DNA from: Ignavibacteriota bacterium
Lineage (GTDB): Bacteria > Bacteroidota > Ignavibacteria > UBA10030
Assembly: GCA_022616555.1 (NCBI GenBank)
Contig: JAKEEG010000091.1
Location: 1,016-65,015 of the forward strand
Direction of reading: 5' to 3'
Length of the DNA: 64,000 bases
Shown here: positions 35,563-64,000 of the stretch, piece after piece
Layout of the letters: each line of letters starts with the position of its first letter
Numbering within the stretch: position 1 is the first letter of the stretch
Program-made: the position numbers and the translations under genes
Notes under the pieces: model-generated
Seen by the model: only the letters and a program-made list of their open reading frames with translations
What the model was told of the DNA's origin: nothing
Databases searched by the model: none

Positions 35563-36927
35563 ATGTGGATTCTTTGGCGGCATATTCTCCGATCACATCT
35601 CGTCCCCTTCGTGTTTGCGTTCACCGTGTTGATGGGGATTTTCCTCTTGCAGTTCATCGTGAAATCCCTAGACCAGCTCGCGGGCAAGGGACTTTCCGCG
35701 TGGGTGATCATCGAGCTCACAACGCTTAACCTTGCTTGGATGGTGGTTCTCGCCGCTCCGATGGCTGTGCTCGTTGCTGCAATCATGGCTTTCGGAACGC
35801 TTTCCTCCACGCACGAAATCACTGCGATGCGCTCCAATGGCGTCAGCCTTTACCGGATGATGGCGCCGGTCGTGCTGGCATCGCTTGCGCTTTCGTATGC
35901 TGTGCTCTGGTTCAACAACGAGGTCCTGCCGGATTCGAATCACCGCGTACGCGCGCTCATCAACGACATCAACCGCAAAAAACCCACGCTCTCGCTCGTG
36001 CCCGGATTATTTTCGCAAGCACTACAGGGCTACAGCATCCTCGTGCGCAAGACGTTTGAGTACTCCAACGACCTTGAGGGCGTCACAATTTTCGATTACA
36101 CCAAGAACGACTTGCATGCCACAGTTACCGCAAAACGGGGAACGATTTCGTTTTCATCCGATTACCGTAAGGTGATCATGGATTTATACGACGGTGAGAT
36201 TCACGAAATCAGCACGACAAATTTTTCCGAGTACCGAAAAATTCGTTTCGAAAAACACCGCATAGCAATGAACGCGGAAGGTTTTGATTTCCAGCGTTCG
36301 CAGGAAAACGCTTTTTCCCGCGGCGACCGCGAGCTGAGCGCAAGCGCCATGCGTCATCTCGTTGACAGTCTCCAACAGCTCCGCACATCTGCAGAAACAC
36401 GCATCGCTCAGTTTACCGCATCGAAAAATGATACAACAAAAAAAATAGATTCGACTGTCAACCTCGGCATACAAAATCCGAACCTCCTCGCCCTCACGCA
36501 AGCTTCAACATTGCAATCGAAGATCGAGCAAGAGAAAGCATTTATCGATAGACTCGAACGGCAGTCACGCGAGTATCTGGTGGAAATCCATAAAAAGTAC
36601 GCCATTCCGGTGGCGTGCTTCGTCTTCGTTCTGATCGGTGTGCCGCTCGGCATTATGGCGCGCAAAGGAACGTTCGGCATGGCGGCAAGTTTAAGCCTGG
36701 GATTTTTCCTGCTCTACTGGGCATGCCTGATCGGCGGAGAAAAGCTTGCGGACCGCGGCGCCATCGACCCGTGGTTAGGGATGTGGATCGCCAATATCAT
36801 CATCGGAGCGTTGGGGGTGTATCTCACGATCCGCTCTGCGCGGGAGAATCTTACAATTAACTGGTCGATATTTACGCGCTTTATTCCTAAACAATGGCGC
36901 ATGGAAGAGGAGCCCGCCCAGACATAA
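35563..36927 (+). CDS. LptF/LptG family permease (YjgP/YjgQ)
   Basis: N-terminal MWILWRHILRSHL… with 3 TM helices, a large periplasmic insert and 3 C-terminal TM helices. It pairs with a second copy downstream. Confidence 0.85.
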   Translation: MWILWRHILRSHLVPFVFAFTVLMGIFLLQFIVKSLDQLAGKGLSAWVIIELTTLNLAWMVVLAAPMAVLVAAIMAFGTLSSTHEITAMRSNGVSLYRMMAPVVLASLALSYAVLWFNNEVLPDSNHRVRALINDINRKKPTLSLVPGLFSQALQGYSILVRKTFEYSNDLEGVTIFDYTKNDLHATVTAKRGTISFSSDYRKVIMDLYDGEIHEISTTNFSEYRKIRFEKHRIAMNAEGFDFQRSQENAFSRGDRELSASAMRHLVDSLQQLRTSAETRIAQFTASKNDTTKKIDSTVNLGIQNPNLLALTQASTLQSKIEQEKAFIDRLERQSREYLVEIHKKYAIPVACFVFVLIGVPLGIMARKGTFGMAASLSLGFFLLYWACLIGGEKLADRGAIDPWLGMWIANIIIGALGVYLTIRSARENLTINWSIFTRFIPKQWRMEEEPAQT

Positions 36928-38033
36928 TGTTGCTTATTGACCGCTATATCATTCGCCAATTTATTGCCGCATTCCTGTTCGGATTGCTCGCCTTCACGTT
37001 GATTTTTATTCTGATCGACATGATGGAAAAGATTGACGATTTCTTCGACGCAAACACTCCGACCGCGGTCATCGCCGAATACTATCTCTACTTCTCGCCA
37101 GAGATCATTAAACTGATGACGCCTGTTGCCATGCTGCTCGCCGCGCTGTTTGTGATGGGCCGACTGACAAACCTGAACGAACTTCCCGCCATGAAAGCGA
37201 GCGGCGTGAGCTTGTACCGTATCCTTTTGCCCTTCATCATTGTCGCCTTCCTTGTAAGCGCTGTGTCCGTATATTTCAATGGCTGGGTTGTGCCTGGCGC
37301 GAACCAGAGGAAATTTGCCATCGAGCGTCAGCATTTGCAGCGGGTTGATTCTTATAACCGGTTCAATATTTTCTTCCAAGACGGACGCACGCGCGTTATC
37401 TCGCTCGGCTTTTATGAGCCGCAATCGCAATCCGCCACACGCGTGAGCATTATAGACTTTGCCGATACGAATCTGACAGTGCTCTCACACCGGTACGATG
37501 CCGACCGGATGACGTGGACGACGCTCACCGACAGCATCACCGGTACAACATCCGAGGGTTGGGTGCTCGACTACGGTACTAAGCGGCTCATCACAGGAGA
37601 CCGCGATTCAATCACCTACTTTAGCCAGTTCCCCATTGGCAAGCTTAGCGTAACGCCGGATGAGATAGCCAAGAAGCAACGCAAACCTGACGAGATGGAC
37701 TACCCGGAACTCAGCGAGTTTATCGAGAGCCAGCAGCGTGCAGGACAAGACGTGGCGCGTTGGGAGGTCGAGTATAACGCCAAGGTCGCATTCCCGTTTG
37801 CCAGCGTTGTCGTGACGCTGTTCGGTGTAACATTCGGTTCCGTGCGTAGGCGAAGCGGCGTAGCGGTGGAGTTCGGTATCTGCGTCGCTATGACCTTCCT
37901 CTACATGGGCTTTATGAAAACAAGCCAAGTCTTCGGCTACAACGGCGACTTTCATCCGTTGCTCACCGCGTGGCTCGCAAACCTCATCTTCCTCGGCATG
38001 GGCATGGTGAATTTGTTGAGAGTGCAGAAGTAA
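36927..38033 (+). CDS. LptF/LptG family permease (second copy)
   Basis: MLLIDRYIIRQFIAAFLFGLLAFTLIFILID is the canonical YjgP/YjgQ start. A TAATG overlap with the upstream permease gives 36927 as the start. Confidence 0.85.
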   Translation: MLLIDRYIIRQFIAAFLFGLLAFTLIFILIDMMEKIDDFFDANTPTAVIAEYYLYFSPEIIKLMTPVAMLLAALFVMGRLTNLNELPAMKASGVSLYRILLPFIIVAFLVSAVSVYFNGWVVPGANQRKFAIERQHLQRVDSYNRFNIFFQDGRTRVISLGFYEPQSQSATRVSIIDFADTNLTVLSHRYDADRMTWTTLTDSITGTTSEGWVLDYGTKRLITGDRDSITYFSQFPIGKLSVTPDEIAKKQRKPDEMDYPELSEFIESQQRAGQDVARWEVEYNAKVAFPFASVVVTLFGVTFGSVRRRSGVAVEFGICVAMTFLYMGFMKTSQVFGYNGDFHPLLTAWLANLIFLGMGMVNLLRVQK

Positions 38034-38034
38034 G

Positions 38035-38838
38035 TTAGGCGGGAGAAAGACGTTGCATAATATCTGTTGCAAACTCAATGTTTAGCTGACCGAGTGAAAA
38101 AGTAATCGGGTTATCCTTCTTTCGTAGTCGCGGTTCAGGCATTTGATCATATGTCCGTCCGTCAAGCACTCTCCCCGTCGCCTTTTTATTTAAACCGCCC
38201 CACTGCTTAAAGAAGAATTTTACTTTATGCCCTTTGCATAGCCCTCTGATTTGACGAACCCACTCTGGTTTTATCGGACGTGCATGAGGTCCCGATTCTC
38301 CACCAACAATGACCCAGTCAATTCCTTCAAGCGGCAAGTACGGTATTGGGGCTATCAACGGCTCGACAGATAAGAACCTCACAGCAGCAGGAACTTTAGC
38401 TAGTTGCTGAACGCGAAAAACATACTCAGGCGATTCTACACTTACCCCCATCCACACATTTTCAGGCCAAGGTAACCTCGATGAAATCTCAAGCAAACGA
38501 TCAGACCGCTTTGTAAGGATTTGAAACGTGTGCCAGTGAGCTTTCTGCATAGTAGCAAATACCTGAGCGATAAAAAACTCAGGCACCTCTTTGTGGAACA
38601 GGTCGCTCATGGAGTTAACAAAAATGACCTTCGGTTCTTTCCAACGAAGTGGCAAGCTGACAAGGTCGTGGTGGAGCGTTACTTCAAAGCCGTTACGATA
38701 GCGATACGAGCCCATCGCTTTCAAACGCTCCGCCATACGCTCCGCGTAGCAATGCTTGCAACCCGGACTAACTTTATCACACCCTGTTACCGGGTTCCAC
38801 GTCGCTTCAGTCCACTCGATTGATGATTGTTGCGCCAT
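38035..38838 (-). CDS. DUF5131 (phage Gp37/Gp68 family) three-Cys-motif protein
   Basis: N-terminal [27 protein letters not shown], a Cx6CxxC three-Cys motif characteristic of PF07505. The gene sits in an AT-shifted islet. Confidence 0.7.
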
Positions 38839-39676
38839 ATTGATTCTTATATTTTTTCACAATATCGTTTCCAATATTCACTGCAGTTCTATTATTGGAA
38901 GCAAGATATAAATGGTACATTGGTGACCGCCTCGAATTTTTCAGTTCGTACGGATTCGACACAAACTTAAATACTTCTTTAAGTCGGCTTTGATAAAGTT
39001 TTGCAGCTTTACCAATAGCATTAACTTCCTTTTCGCTTCTGGTAATATCATTAAACAGAGAGGGTATTTCAACGTAAAAATATTTCTTTACTTCCATTCT
39101 TGATAATCCTAAAAACTTTTCAAGCCGCTCTAACCAAGAGTCAGATATGTCACCATCGGTTTCTAATAGACGATTTACCCCTAACCCAGTAGGAACTAAA
39201 ACCCACAGATCCACTGGCAATTCTCTTAGCGATTCAATCGCGTTCCATTCTAACTGCATGCCACAAGGGTCGATATAAGCTAAAGTCCTATAGTGCGCGT
39301 TCTCCTTTTTTGACAGGAATTTTGATAAATCAAGTATTTTTTTATTACAATCTCCAGACACTGTATAAATTTCTTTTTCGGGAAAAGCGTCTTTAGTATT
39401 TTCTTTAAGAAGTTTAAAAGTCTTTGGATCTTTTTCAACGAAGTAATAGACATCAAAAGGTTTAGGATGACTAATTTCGAGTATTCTTCTGGCGGCTCCA
39501 ATGGTTACGTCAATTCCAAATTTGCTATCCTTAACAATAAAACCCGAACCTGCGAATCCGTCAAAGTACAATGTCTTAAAATACTTCCGTGTATTCATTA
39601 TCGTTAAGTAAGCATTCGCGTACTCAACAAGTATTTTAATTTTTATTTTTGTCCAGTTTCCTCCGAATTGCTTCAT
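38807..39676 (-). CDS. TcmP-like (three-Cys-motif partner protein) candidate; uncharacterised
   Basis: 289 aa, very AT-rich, directly upstream of and overlapping the DUF5131 gene. It contains FDGFAGSG (a SAM-MTase motif-I-like sequence) and IDPCG. The partner-family assignment is recalled from memory and was not searched. Confidence 0.5.
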
Positions 39677-40054
39677 TTCCTTCCTCGTAGGATTTTAAAG
39701 CGGATGATGGATACAATACGACATTTTTGTCATATTGTCAAATTAATAAATAGCATATTTGTCGAGAGCGAATAGAAAAGTGAACATAAAATATGAATTT
39801 GTTTACACATCGTCAAGTACACACCGTTACCCTTGCGCTTTTGAGCGCCTCAGAAAGACGTCTGGTCGTGGGCGATTTTGATGTGCGATATGTTTTTCTA
39901 TCTGGTTACTTCTATTGCTTGCCAATACCGTTCAACAGCAGCCCCGTAGGGGCAGGCGGGATGCTAGAAGCGCATTTCACTCAGCTTTCCTTATGATATC
40001 CTAATCGAAGGCGTCGCACCGAGGCAAAGAAGAAGTTGACGACAAATAGATTCA

Positions 40055-40275
40055 CTCGGCACGGCCAGCCAGGAGCATGCCCGCGGGACAGACCCGGGGA
40101 ATCCAGAGCCCGAAAACCGCGTTGAGCGGTTTTCGTGTCGTAGGCCCTTACAAAGGATTCCGTGAGGGACGCCTTGCGTTAGGAATAACCGGATGGTTTC
40201 TCGGGCATCGTGGCCACTCTGCCCAAGAACCGGAAATTCAATTTACCCAATATACAGTACCGAACCCCCGCTCGT
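40055..40275. other. GC-rich, hairpin-dense non-coding segment (candidate structured RNA or gene remnant)
   Basis: It has local hairpins (AAAACCGCgttgaGCGGTTTT and GGGCAtcgtggccactcTGCCC), GC content well above its AT-rich flanks, and no credible ORF. Confidence 0.3.
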
Positions 40276-40295
40276 CAATACAAGATTTGTAATTT

Positions 40296-40339
40296 GTTTG
40301 TACAATTTTGGTAAAAAGATTGTACAAATTTTGTAAAAC
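40296..40339. repeat. Tandem ~22-bp direct repeat containing the palindromic core TTGTACAA
   Basis: TTGTACAATTTTGGTAAAAAGA followed by TTGTACAAATTTTGTAAAACCG. The TTTTGTAA motif recurs again at 40376–40394. Confidence 0.7.
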
Positions 40340-40342
40340 CGC

Positions 40343-40369
40343 GTAGGGGCGTATAATATACGCCCCTAC
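40343..40369. repeat. REP-like palindrome GTAGGGGCGTATAATATACGCCCCTAC
   Basis: It has the same GTAGGGG…CCCCTAC arms as the RAYT-associated REPs and lies in the non-coding tail of the tcmP islet. Confidence 0.75.
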
Positions 40370-40487
40370 AAAAACATTTTGTAATTTTTACAATAATGTA
40401 ATTTCAATGAATACCAATATATACCGGGAAATGGTATTTGTCAACTCGAATTTTAGAAAAACTTTACTCGAAATTTAGAATACGTTG

Positions 40488-41360
40488 TTACAACACCGTA
40501 TAACTCACGCCAAACGCCAGCGTTTCCTTCACCTGTGTGCGCGGGTTTACTTTTTTATCGTTAATCACCTGTGCGTTCACCTTCACAATGAAGTATTTGC
40601 TCACCTGCACCGCCAGAGTATTATCGCTCCTGAGCGAAAAATCGCGGTATCGCTTGAACGGCGAGAAGAGCTCGATCTTCGACGTAAACAACACTTGCTC
40701 TTCGATTTTCCATTCGACCTCGGTAATCGATTCCAAGCCGCCGTCGGTTTTAATGCGCTCGACAACCGTTGTCGCTGGGTCGTCCGCATAGCCGACGAAT
40801 TTTGAAGTGATAATCTCGCGCAGCGCAGCGCCAAGCCGCGTCTTGACTTGAGGAATGGGCTGGTAGCCGATGCCGATACTTTGCGTCAGGTACGCCGGGT
40901 CGAAGAATTTCGAAACGACCGTTTCATTTCCCGCGGCGTCGTACTGCACGCCTTTGGTGAACTGCGTTTTCATTGTCGCTCCGGCATAGGGGTTTACGTG
41001 CAATCCAAATTTATAGGTAAAGACCGATTGCAAGTCGATCTTGTCATCCGTCTTTCGAAGTCCCTGACCGCTTAAACGCGTCTGACCGAACGCAAGCTTG
41101 TAGGTGTGCGCCCAGTTCAATTTGGAAACATCCAATTCCGTTTTGCCGTCTGCGGAGACGGCGTAGGCGAGCGCGTTTTGTCCGCCCTGCGCCCAGTTGG
41201 TGTGGGAGACCTGCGTGAAGGTCAACGCTCCGACGAGGCTGTGCTTCCACGGACCCGGCGGCAATGGAAGCGGAGCGGCCGTGTCGGGCTTCGTTTCTTG
41301 AAATGCGTAGAGCGGAATGAAAAAAAATAGCGACAGTACAACAACTATAGACTTCTTCAT
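40488..41360 (-). CDS. Secreted beta-barrel protein (DUF3078-like)
   Basis: A signal peptide (MKKSIVVVLSLFFFIPLYA) followed by an alternating hydrophobic beta-strand pattern and an NWAQGG motif. Confidence 0.5.
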   Translation of the reverse strand: MKKSIVVVLSLFFFIPLYAFQETKPDTAAPLPLPPGPWKHSLVGALTFTQVSHTNWAQGGQNALAYAVSADGKTELDVSKLNWAHTYKLAFGQTRLSGQGLRKTDDKIDLQSVFTYKFGLHVNPYAGATMKTQFTKGVQYDAAGNETVVSKFFDPAYLTQSIGIGYQPIPQVKTRLGAALREIITSKFVGYADDPATTVVERIKTDGGLESITEVEWKIEEQVLFTSKIELFSPFKRYRDFSLRSDNTLAVQVSKYFIVKVNAQVINDKKVNPRTQVKETLAFGVSYTVL

Positions 41361-42631: not shown

Positions 42632-42679
42632 CCCCTGCGGCTCAAACAGCGAGCCGCGTCCCCCTTGATGAAGAGGGGC
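42632..42679. repeat. G-rich palindromic intergenic element (CCCCTGCG-hairpin-CGTCCCCCTT…AGGGG)
   Basis: CCCCTGCGGCTCAAACAGCGAGCCGCGTCCCCCTTGATGAAGAGGGG; related to the elements at 59357 and 63822. Confidence 0.7.
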
Positions 42680-49820: not shown

Positions 49821-49848
49821 GTAGGGGTTGAATATATTCAACCCCTAC
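49821..49848. repeat. REP-like perfect 28-bp palindrome GTAGGGGTTGAATATATTCAACCCCTAC
   Basis: Self-complementary; it encodes the last codons and stop of the RAYT and lies 11 bp upstream of the recG start. Confidence 0.85.
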
Positions 49849-50392
49849 TCCGATTTTTCACATTTATTGGATTTTCTTCGTCGTAGAACCAACGCAAAAC
49901 GTTATCGGCAATGTACTGCCTAATCCTAATCAACTCTTTTTCGTTGCGAATGATATGCTCGTAATAATCTCTCTGCCATTTAAACTCTAATGATTTATTT
50001 CGATGGCTGATTCGTGTCACTGCTGCTTTGTAAGAACGAATAATCGATCCAAGAGATTTTGGAATCACATGCTGATATCTGTTTTGTCGTTGTAGGGGTT
50101 CAATATATTGAACCCCTACCCTGTCTGTTATACACAGAATGCCGTGTATATGATTTGGCATCACAACATGCTCATCCAACTGGACATTCGGAAAATGCTC
50201 GGGAATTTTGACCCAGCATTCGTCGGCAATTTTTCCAATTGAAGACAGATTCATTTTCTCTTCAACAATATTCCCAAATACGCATTCCCGTTCGTACGTG
50301 CAAATCGTTATAAAGTACGCTCCTTCTTGAGAATAATCGTACTCTTTCAACCGTATTGATCGGCGGTGAAATTTCTCAAGGGTATCGCTCAT
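49838..50392 (-). CDS. REP-associated tyrosine transposase (RAYT; IS200-like Y1 HUH transposase)
   Basis: HUH motif (MPNHIHGIL) and a catalytic Tyr region (WQRDYYEHII). Its stop is encoded by a 28-bp REP palindrome, and its start overlaps the stop of the M28 peptidase gene. Confidence 0.8.
   Translation of the reverse strand: MSDTLEKFHRRSIRLKEYDYSQEGAYFITICTYERECVFGNIVEEKMNLSSIGKIADECWVKIPEHFPNVQLDEHVVMPNHIHGILCITDRVGVQYIEPLQRQNRYQHVIPKSLGSIIRSYKAAVTRISHRNKSLEFKWQRDYYEHIIRNEKELIRIRQYIADNVLRWFYDEENPINVKNRSRG
50091..50118. repeat. REP-like perfect 28-bp palindrome GTAGGGGTTCAATATATTGAACCCCTAC (in-frame inside the RAYT ORF)
   Basis: Self-complementary. It differs from the 49821 copy by a symmetric G/C swap and encodes GVQYIEPLQ within the RAYT. 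Confidence 0.85.
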
Positions 50393-59356: not shown

Positions 59357-59486
59357 CCCCCTGCGTTCCGATTAGCTATGGCTAATCGGAACACGTCCCC
59401 CTTAGTGAGGGGGACAAAACACTAGCGTGAGGCTCTTCCCCTCCTAACCAAGGAGGGGTGTCCCGCTGTTTTGTAGCGGGACGGGG
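59357..59486. repeat. Composite G-rich structured repeat (four hairpins) between plsC and gatC
   Basis: CCCCTGCG-[GTTCCGATTAGCTATGGCTAATCGGAAC]-ACGTCCCCCTTAGTGAGGGGGAC…CCCCTCCTAACCAAGGAGGGGTGTCCCGCTGTTTTGTAGCGGGACGGGG; co-linear with the copy at 63822–63939. Confidence 0.75.
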
Positions 59487-59509
59487 TGGTTTCCTTCATT
59501 CTATCGATT

Positions 59510-62591: not shown

Positions 62592-63830
62592 TCAACGATA
62601 CAACAAATACTTCTCCCTGCGGCTGAGGTAATCAGCTTGCTGCCTTTTGATCTTGGCGAGCATATCTTCCACCCGGGCGAAAGTCACTAATTCCCTACGA
62701 ATCTCCGCCGAGCCGAGAATTTTGTCGAAGGACTCGATTTTCTCCTTGCGTGCCCGCGCATAGATATTGCGCTCCGGGAAGAGTGTATAGAGTGCCGATA
62801 AAATATGCAGTTGCACAGCCGTTAGACTAATAGTATCACGGTCTGTGACGTGTATCTGCACGCCGCTGTAGCGCGTGCCGTTGTCGTTGTAAATGCGATA
62901 ATACATGGGGCGAAATTCAACGCCCACGAGCTTCTTGCCGTTGAGATGATCTGCTAATAACGGCGCATCAACCCACGGCGCACCGACAAGCTCGAACGGC
63001 ATCGTGTAGCCAAGCCCCTGATTTGCCGTGCCAAGCTCGCCCAGCAATCCGGTCATCACGTAGAACATCGGCGTAGCGGACCGAGGGATATTCGGCGAGG
63101 GCGGCACCCACGGTAGTCCGGTATCATCCCACCACATTGACCTGCTCCATCCTTCCATTTGCACTACGGTGAGATTGCATTTGACTCCGTTCGCAAGCCA
63201 GCCCTCCTCGTTAACCATCTGCGCCAGCTCGCCAACCGTTAAGCCATACACGTAAGGAATTGGATAGTACCCGACGAACGATTTATACTCCGGCTCAATC
63301 ATTGTGCCTTCCACACGATTACCGGTTAGAGGGTTTGGGCGGTCGAGCACGATAAGCTCAACGCCGTTTTCCGCCGCCGCTTCCATAGCATAGCCCATTG
63401 TAGAAATAAACGTATAGGAGCGCACGCCGATATCCTGAATATCGTAAATGAGCGCGTCTAAGCCGCGCAGCATGTCGGCAGTGGGTTTACGCGTGGGACC
63501 ATAGAGTGAGTACACTGGAAGTCCTGTCTTGGCGTCGTTGTAATTCTCCACCCATTTGCCGGCTTCCACGTCCCCACGTGCGCCATGCTCGGGACCGAAC
63601 AGCGCTACCAGCTTAACTTCAGGCGCGTTGAACAGTACATCGATAGTAGAACGAAGGTTGCCCGCAACTCCCGTTGGATTCGTAATCAACCCAACCCTCT
63701 TGCCGCGAAGAATGTCAAAATTCCGTGCCTGCAATACATCAATGCCGGGCTTTACTTTAGGCTGCGAGAAAACGCTATGAAAAGAAACCAAAAGAGTAAT
63801 CAGAAGAAAAACAAAGGAAACCCCCTGCGG
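62592..63830 (-). CDS. DUF1343-family protein (exo-beta-N-acetylmuramidase NamZ-like); start uncertain
   Basis: LITNPTGV…LFGPEHGARGD…DIQDIGVRSYTF motifs. The ORF-track N-terminus (out to 63953) reads through a palindromic repeat element, so the true start is probably internal. Confidence 0.75.
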   Translation of the reverse strand, partial: PQGVSFVFLLITLLVSFHSVFSQPKVKPGIDVLQARNFDILRGKRVGLITNPTGVAGNLRSTIDVLFNAPEVKLVALFGPEHGARGDVEAGKWVENYNDAKTGLPVYSLYGPTRKPTADMLRGLDALIYDIQDIGVRSYTFISTMGYAMEAAAENGVELIVLDRPNPLTGNRVEGTMIEPEYKSFVGYYPIPYVYGLTVGELAQMVNEEGWLANGVKCNLTVVQMEGWSRSMWWDDTGLPWVPPSPNIPRSATPMFYVMTGLLGELGTANQGLGYTMPFELVGAPWVDAPLLADHLNGKKLVGVEFRPMYYRIYNDNGTRYSGVQIHVTDRDTISLTAVQLHILSALYTLFPERNIYARARKEKIESFDKILGSAEIRRELVTFARVEDMLAKIKRQQADYLSRREKYLLYR

Positions 63831-63939
63831 CTCACAAAACGAGCCGCGTCCCCCTTCTTTAGGGGAACAAGGTGATTGCGCAATATTTTTCCCCTCCTCA
63901 CCAAGGAGGGGTGTCCCGACGTTTTTTGTCGAGACGGGG
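63822..63939. repeat. Composite G-rich structured repeat (second copy)
   Basis: Same order of modules as 59357–59486, but the internal hairpin is a different sequence (GCGGCTCACAAAACGAGCCGC) with pairing preserved. Confidence 0.75.
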
Positions 63940-64000
63940 AAGTTACTCTTCATTCGATGTTCTAGTGCTATATTATGTATTTAATGTCAGATTAGTAATG

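Follow-up and report, generated by a model that had tools for sequence, protein, structure and literature searches.

The closest described counterpart of the gene pair analysed here is PDC-M41, one of 145 untested 'phage defence candidates' (PDC) that were proposed on the basis of 'guilt-by-embedding' in BREX, DISARM and type I restriction-modification (R-M) loci (bioRxiv 10.1101/2024.01.29.577857). PDC-M41 is the cassette FAM_02405>>FAM_00989, and its B family FAM_00989 is shared with a second candidate, PDC-M30 (Payne et al., bioRxiv 10.1101/2024.01.29.577857, supplement). As its authors list PDC-M41 as untested, membership says nothing on mechanism. NCBIfam names the TIGR04474 family TcmP (three-Cys-motif partner protein) for the same pairing. 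Known enzymes come close to each of the two proteins separately: the nearest structural relatives of TcmP are the 23S rRNA m6A2030 methyltransferase RlmJ and the tRNA m2,2G26 methyltransferase Trm1, whereas its partner, the DUF5131 (Gp37/Gp68) protein, is best compared with the SplB/COG1533 'DNA repair photolyase' group, which includes spore photoproduct lyase, PA0069 and Rv2578c. Type III R-M resembles the pair by logic and neighbourhood, not by homology, in that a variable methyltransferase-like partner is combined with a conserved second enzyme. Here, we analysed a stretch of 64,000 nucleotides (contig JAKEEG010000091.1, positions 1,016 to 65,015; 'the window') from an uncultured Ignavibacteria metagenome-assembled genome, in which such a pair lies between lptG and a gene for an outer-membrane protein (OMP). 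The locus is real and its system is already catalogued, both in NCBIfam and as PDC-M41 in PADLOC, and is thus not new; we found that the pair is a horizontally acquired two-gene module at a variable spot, the 3' end of lptG.

Both genes are encoded on the minus strand. The tcmP gene (38807-39676, 289 aa) is directly followed downstream by the DUF5131 gene (38035-38838, 267 aa), and the two open reading frames overlap by 32 bp, as an earlier reading of the letters alone (hereafter the sequence-only reading) had described. The family names given there hold as well: TcmP matches TIGR04474 with 140.5 bits against a curated cut-off of 53 (E 9.2e-41) and has a three-Cys protein adjoining, as is characteristic of that family, while DUF5131 matches PF07505 over model positions 1-243 of 243 (E 5.9e-100; 334 bits, gathering threshold 28.9). 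In PADLOC, the search of which had been recommended, both proteins were found with E-values of about 1e-118, TcmP as PDC-M41A (PDLC04636, E 2.6e-118, residues 1-277 of 289) and DUF5131, adjacent to the A component, as PDC-M41B (PDLC04639, E 8.4e-119). The window thus agrees with PDC-M41 in full-length matches to both hidden Markov models and in the adjacency of the genes. It differs in its surroundings: the copies behind the models came from within BREX, DISARM or type I R-M loci, whereas the window pair stands alone between lptG (36894-38033, plus strand; PF03739, E 1.6e-83) and the DUF3078/DUF481 OMP gene (40488-41360, minus strand), the ancestral neighbour of lptG. Pfam matches bear out these flanking assignments, including lptF upstream of lptG, which likewise belongs to the PF03739 permease family.

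In base composition, the pair departs from its neighbours. The GC content is 0.354 for tcmP and 0.476 for the DUF5131 gene compared to 0.529 for lptG, 0.527 for the OMP gene and 0.489 for the whole window. The low and the intermediate value had been correctly estimated by eye, whereas the flanking genes lptF, lptG and OMP, for which about 55% had been stated, range only from 0.52 to 0.53. At third codon positions (GC3) the contrast is sharper (0.32 for tcmP and 0.47 for DUF5131 against 0.57-0.68 in the flanking genes) and is therefore not an effect of amino-acid composition. All residues that are invariant in the respective family are retained in both window proteins, and both genes are under purifying selection, with non-synonymous divergence (pN) of 0.09 and 0.17 against a synonymous divergence (pS) of about 0.78; pN and pS are reported in place of Ka/Ks, since synonymous sites are saturated for the islet genes. 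The two genes are thus intact representatives of their families.

TcmP conforms to a Rossmann-like class I methyltransferase fold of the RlmJ/Trm1 type. The binding motif I for S-adenosylmethionine (SAM) reads Y37-F-D39-G-F-A-G43-S-G45 (YxDGFAGSG), the acidic residue after strand beta-2 is E81, and the protein further has a GDxN motif, the residues D-P-x-G at the place of motif IV and an invariant N-terminal W8/K12 segment. Profile searches returned weak matches to RsmD, RlmJ and Trm1, and no significant match to the Pfam families RsmJ or TRM. Sequence identity to RlmJ and Trm1 is only 13-16%, and TcmP differs from both in belonging to a mobile family that is paired with a predicted Fe-S enzyme. 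Within motif IV, D136 and P137 are invariant. Residue 138 is Y or F in 68 of 73 diverse homologues, giving the DP(Y/F)G signature of the wider TIGR04474 family that is also seen in Trm1; the window subfamily has a cysteine there instead, and the resulting DPCG occurs in the window protein and in 117 of the 120 close homologues that we checked. At its C-terminus, the window TcmP carries an extension of 11 residues, which creates the 32-bp overlap with the DUF5131 gene.

For DUF5131, the N-terminal CX6CX2C motif pointed out in the sequence-only reading is present, and 58 homologues retain its cysteines C20, C27 and C30 without exception. The spacing differs from the canonical CX3CX2C motif of radical-SAM enzymes, Pfam Radical_SAM (PF04055) gave no match at E <= 0.01, and both features set DUF5131 apart from the SplB/COG1533 group. 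TIGR04471 (radical SAM mobile pair A) is matched only partially (E 1e-20), and its 74 bits, where 355 are required, exclude the protein from the rSAM mobile pair equivalogs. Foldseek searches of a DUF5131 model against the PDB returned generic TIM barrels only, from which the structure cannot be distinguished, and sequence and profile searches of the PDB with DUF5131 and TcmP found no significant relative. RadicalSAM.org, however, places DUF5131 as a subgroup in Megacluster-5-2, beside spore photoproduct lyase (PMC9477430). Moreover, at 16 loci of the IMG/VR virus collection the partner of TcmP is not DUF5131 but a 254-265-aa protein recognised by Pfam Radical_SAM (47.6 bits), whose Cys loop aligns with that of DUF5131 and which is weakly similar to PA0069, Rv2578c (COG1533) and rSAM-mobile-pair-B. 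Based on the RadicalSAM.org class, the partial TIGR04471 match and the fact that a recognised Radical_SAM protein can take its genomic position, DUF5131 is predicted to be a [4Fe-4S] enzyme of the radical-SAM superfamily, related to SplB.

How did the pair arrive next to lptG? To follow the junction through related genomes, we compared 47 lptG loci from related species-level Ignavibacteria genomes, in which the order SprA-PdxH-LptF-LptG is conserved. DUF5131 and TcmP are absent from the flanks of lptG in all 47, as would follow from the lateral acquisition claimed earlier. In five of these loci (L002, L007, L008, L011 and L020), the OMP gene is the immediate neighbour of lptG, 40-70 bp away, and in others an M24 peptidase gene comes next. 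Exact-protein look-ups revealed two more metagenomic lineages that have the pair at this junction. In the first (L054), identities to the window are 82% for LptG, 86% for DUF5131 and 71% for TcmP; in the second (L055-L059), they amount to 75% for LptG and 79% for DUF5131, but only 25% for TcmP, although that protein still belongs to TIGR04474 (125 bits). The DUF5131 stop codon lies 1-2 nt from that of lptG in all three lineages (1 nt in the window). LptG of L055, where the pair is present, is 94% identical to LptG of L002, where the lptG-OMP junction is clean, so presence or absence of the pair differs between close relatives. The GC3 gap to the flanking genes, the absence from all 47 related loci and the contrast between L055 and L002 together are the reason why we call the module foreign. 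The sequence-only reading had also named what would speak against it, namely an islet at this position in all relatives with the same GC content, two genes never found together elsewhere, or no match of either protein to the family models. Each of these turned out in its favour, and its interpretation as a laterally acquired module is supported as sound.

The manner of integration is best visible in L054. There, a 65-bp direct repeat of the lptG 3' end (89% identity; 655-719 and 2501-2565) brackets the islet, and no integrase was found on the contig. This repeat resembles the attachment (att) sites of integrative elements and points to a site-specific integration into the lptG 3' end with later loss of the mobility genes. 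The stop-to-stop junction, alike in the three lineages, is a further sign of integration. In the window, the islet holds no recombinase and is not bracketed by an att repeat, the flanks are syntenic with the relatives, and the tail between tcmP and the OMP gene contains no second copy of the lptG 3' end (no match above shuffled controls). A different insert occupies the lptG/OMP junction in L009 (8620-11317): this unrelated 2.7-kb segment encodes a secreted protein with a C-terminal domain of the type IX secretion system type and a coiled-coil lipoprotein. The position is therefore a variable spot, which suggests that the lptG/OMP junction is an insertion hot spot.

Once the three lineages were compared, the two genes turned out to have separate histories. 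For DUF5131, the window, L054 and L055 find their best matches in one another (82-87% identity), and the window protein shares only 58-59% identity with the DUF5131 partners of Cytophagales TcmP proteins. The window TcmP, in contrast, is 68-72% identical to those same Cytophagales TcmP proteins. The identities of the partners thus do not match, and the pair is therefore chimeric; likewise, the phylogenies of the two genes disagree. Whereas TcmP subfamilies are only 25% identical, DUF5131 reaches 67-79% across phyla (Nitrospirota, NC10, Planctomycetota and Bacteroidota). Within the clade, DUF5131 appears to be the resident, inherited gene of the lptG locus, while TcmP, judging by these comparisons, was replaced at least once and is represented in the window by a low-GC allele of the Cytophagales type. 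The step in GC content inside the operon is explained by this replacement, from which the 11-residue extension of TcmP may also stem. That the two genes of the laterally acquired module differ in their histories was not visible from the single sequence. As a side observation, GC3 of tcmP is close to 0.32 in all three Ignavibacteria lineages despite saturated synonymous sites, and a drift towards host composition has therefore not taken place.

Beyond Ignavibacteria, thousands of homologues of DUF5131 and TcmP exist across phyla, on plasmids and in phages. DUF5131 is found in 181 cultured-phage records and TcmP in 111 IMG/VR contigs. Among 80 IMG/VR loci with a TcmP gene, DUF5131 adjoins it in 61, of which 39 are convergent, 13 have the order DUF5131>TcmP and 9 the order TcmP>DUF5131. 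Together with copies in Cytophagales genomes, on plasmids and in Gordonia phages, this confirms the recurrence of the pair that the sequence-only reading had stated. Several of these copies have defence genes around them. TcmP pairs are often inserted in or beside Res-Mod operons, and several of the 16 loci with a Radical_SAM partner precede Mod and Res genes of type III; in Cecembia, a close TcmP homologue directly follows a type III operon of the arrangement HTH-Res-Mod (HTH, helix-turn-helix) with an OLD nuclease. Further close homologues reside between DarTG and Thoeris in an integrase-bounded island and among AbiJ, AbiC, GmrSD and Zeta genes. In the Gordonia phage Fairfaxidum (L145, NC_048185, 4992-6933), the convergent genes gp42 (DUF5131) and gp43 have the integrase on one side and the immunity repressor on the other; although its annotation reads only 'methyltransferase', gp43 belongs to TcmP (TIGR04474 109 bits; hhalign 98%). 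On pSymA of S. meliloti 1021 (L162, 3343-9004), the gene hna (845 aa) is directly followed by TcmP (SMa2243), a 415-aa open reading frame on the opposite strand and, about 1.3 kb further on, DUF5131. The gene hna is a validated defence gene, and a published RNA-seq table lists SMa2243 as co-upregulated with hna in a nolR+ strain. In the prophage prophiT36-2a of M. abscessus, DUF5131 is located beside a DNA methyltransferase in an early RecET/RepA module. A context of a different kind was seen in Cyclobacteriaceae (L140/L141, 5771-11739), where the co-directional pair lies between an ImuB-like Y-family polymerase gene and dnaE2, inside a canonical SOS mutagenesis cassette.

Given these associations with Res-Mod/OLD, DarTG-Thoeris, Abi/GmrSD/Zeta, the Fairfaxidum lysogeny genes and hna on pSymA, and given the loci from which the PDC-M41 models were derived, the module is, by analogy, probably defensive. 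We propose that it is a mobile two-enzyme module of the PDC-M41 class for the modification of nucleic-acid bases, acquired at the lptG 3' end, a reading that may well be right but could equally be wrong. The comparisons establish family membership, fold, mobility and context; from there, we infer the chemistry and the defence role. TcmP would act as an RlmJ/Trm1-like SAM-dependent methyltransferase on the exocyclic amine of a nucleic-acid base, and DUF5131, as a [4Fe-4S] radical-SAM-superfamily enzyme with SplB-type kin, would share its DNA or RNA substrate. The two might jointly install or process a base modification that tells self from invading nucleic acid, and the outcome would be defence against phages or mobile elements. 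In this scheme, the strongly conserved DUF5131 would provide the constant catalysis, while specificity would be set by TcmP, the variable and swappable partner. Going one step further, the pair could form a previously unrecognised self/non-self system built on radical chemistry, in which TcmP sets the target and DUF5131 either hypermodifies the methylated base or damages unmarked nucleic acid; we consider this extension possible but rather unlikely.

Several observations weigh against a defensive base-modification module. In the window, the neighbours of the pair are housekeeping genes and no further defence gene is near it, and the loci with the closest DUF5131 proteins (L158-L161) are likewise isolated islets among housekeeping genes without a defence gene nearby. 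Neither protein contains a recognisable nuclease or other effector, and in the window subfamily of TcmP the cysteine of DPCG takes the place of the usual base-stacking aromatic residue, which by sequence is thus missing. Searches of the literature for DUF5131, Gp37/Gp68, TcmP, PDC-M41, PDC-M30, TIGR04471/TIGR04474 or RlmJ with radical SAM yielded no functional study, and no experiment was found that shows defence, modification, SAM cleavage or an Fe-S cluster for DUF5131 or TcmP. Of the earlier suggestion of an uncharacterised defence or DNA-modification system, the candidate status is therefore matched by the PADLOC listing, while the pair turned out not to be confined to defence islands.

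The same isolation between housekeeping genes would suit a selfish pair resembling an R-M addiction module, in which TcmP methylates and thereby protects a target, DUF5131 damages unprotected nucleic acid by radical chemistry, and defence is only a by-product. Islets of two genes without a recombinase of their own, spread over many phyla, fit such a lifestyle, and so does the strict adjacency in three gene orders (39 convergent, 13 and 9 tandem), which is typical of R-M and toxin-antitoxin pairs with their need to express each gene independently. The combination of a conserved effector and a variable methyltransferase would also resemble the logic of type I and type III R-M, and the pair is often embedded in type III operons, although it differs from type III systems in having no helicase or nuclease subunit and no demonstrated motifs of a sequence-specific DNA methyltransferase. 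A lethal effector would not be expected to occur alone, yet DUF5131 is found without a detectable TcmP in at least one genome, L158; moreover, neither protein has a nuclease-like domain and the toxicity of DUF5131 is wholly inferential, so that we regard an addiction module as unlikely. If, instead, the kinship with spore photoproduct lyase in RadicalSAM.org is taken at face value, DUF5131 could repair lesions by SplB-like radical chemistry with an accessory protein of methyltransferase fold, possibly under stress or SOS control. The similarity of the alternative TcmP partner to PA0069 and Rv2578c points in this direction, as does the report that, in several phyla, COG1533 splB belongs to the core SOS genes under LexA control (PMC4951493), the position between the ImuB-like gene and dnaE2 in Cyclobacteriaceae, and a conserved operator-like palindrome over the promoter of the Ignavibacteria loci (see below). 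However, the PA0069/Rv2578c matches are far below their cut-offs (49 vs 360 bits), the palindrome is no evident regulon motif in the window, and a sporadic, laterally transferred distribution with contexts in defence islands and prophage lysogeny modules fits poorly to a repair or damage-tolerance module, which makes this explanation quite unlikely.

The many copies in viral genomes raise the question whether the pair serves its carrier rather than the cell. As counter-defence cargo of phage origin, it would hypermodify the DNA of the carrier element against host restriction, and the chromosomal copy would be a stranded remnant. The 181 cultured-phage records with DUF5131, the 111 IMG/VR contigs with TcmP, the DNA methyltransferase beside DUF5131 in prophiT36-2a and the att-like repeat without integrase in L054 are all compatible with this. 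Against it, the two genes are intact and under purifying selection in the window as well as in its relatives (with saturated synonymous sites), which argues for a function that benefits the cell, and the Fairfaxidum pair belongs to the lysogeny module and not to the lytic genes; we thus find counter-defence distinctly unlikely as well. Very unlikely, finally, is a housekeeping pair for rRNA or tRNA modification, or a decaying pseudo-operon without function. RlmJ and Trm1 are indeed rRNA and tRNA methyltransferases and the closest structural relatives of TcmP, but the pair is absent from nearly all relatives, has a foreign codon composition and occurs in mobile and defence contexts elsewhere, and the retained invariant residues and low pN/pS speak against decay.

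The mobile base-modification module with a probable role in defence remains our preferred reading. If a radical-SAM-type enzyme and an RlmJ-like methyltransferase do cooperate on DNA or RNA in defence, this would be a new enzymatic principle in prokaryotic immunity and possibly a new nucleic-acid modification. The more specific self/non-self system would, if true, amount to an R-M analogue without a nuclease that has spread through bacteria and temperate phages in the form of a minimal mobile unit of two genes. The main interest lies in the biochemistry of the families rather than in the lptG locus, the uncultured host of which makes testing no easier; tractable copies exist next to hna on pSymA of S. 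meliloti and in temperate phages of Gordonia and Mycobacterium. The locus itself adds modest comparative data, in particular a hot spot at lptG with an att-like scar and the exchange of TcmP against a conserved DUF5131, and the comparison shows that either DUF5131 or a recognised Radical_SAM protein can partner TcmP.

Upstream of tcmP, a non-coding tail of 811 bp (39677-40487) extends to the OMP gene. It consists of an AT-rich promoter-proximal part, about 350 bp with a GC content of about 52% (39900-40260) and an AT-rich distal part with a palindrome. A promoter scan found a promoter-like site, TTGACA-17-TATTGT (39713-39741, minus strand; 10/12 match). Within it lies an imperfect palindrome, TGACAAAAATGTCG (39719-39732), a possible operator. 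Both this palindrome and the hexamer TTGACA also precede the pair in L054 and L055, and their conservation extends across the change of TcmP subfamily. A role of the palindrome as the mark of a regulon was not supported: the window contains 7 matches with one mismatch (2.1 expected), the near-matches lie inside genes and none was shown to be promoter-associated. Neither BLASTN nor TBLASTX of the tail against the 47 related loci detected homology, and the searches thus give no support to a decayed gene or integrase remnant. On the minus strand, the part of about 350 bp folds moderately better than shuffled sequences (z = -2.9). Neither an Rfam search over all 64 kb nor a more permissive one of the tail gave a credible match. 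A 19-nt motif in this part, GGGACGCCTTGCGKTAGGA (40166-40184), pairs with the arm TCCTAAT..AAGGCGTC about 150 nt upstream. It is common to the window tail, L054 (192-211, beyond the att-like repeat) and a few metagenome contigs, and L155 has both arms; a metagenome scan gave 10 heterogeneous matches, by which no RNA family is defined, and the motif matches no Rfam family.

In the distal part of the tail, the perfect palindrome GTAGGGGCGTATA-A-TATACGCCCCTAC (40343-40369; 13-nt arms, 100% complementary) resembles repetitive extragenic palindromic (REP) elements. The sequence-only reading had assigned the palindromes of the tail to the family that flanks a RAYT gene elsewhere in the window, which is right for this one only in part: its GTAGGGG...CCCCTAC ends are common to the palindromes at 49821-49848 and 50092-50119 (3 found, 0 expected in 64 kb), with which it shares the 7-nt termini and the layout, but the internal sequence differs. 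None of the remaining GC-rich hairpins of the tail belongs to this family. With only 3 copies with shared termini in 64 kb, we also rejected the islet palindrome as a common REP. The RAYT-like open reading frame at which the other two lie (49838-50392, minus strand, 184 aa) has the HUH-like motifs 'HIHGIL' and 'YYEHIIRNE' and matches the REP-associated tyrosine transposase model NF047646 with 48 bits, below the cut-off of 80. One REP-like palindrome, GTAGGGGTTCAATATATTGAACCCCTAC, lies within its coding sequence, where it is read as 'VGVQYIEPL', and a second copy overlaps the stop codon. Distinct from the GTAGGGG palindromes, a second family of GC-rich intergenic repeats occurs in the window at 42632-42666, 59394-59491 and 63822-63944, in which hairpins are stacked with the units CCCCTGCGGCTCA..., CGTCCCCCTT..AGGGGGACA, CCCCTCCT..AGGAGGGG and GTCCCGC..GCGGGAC.

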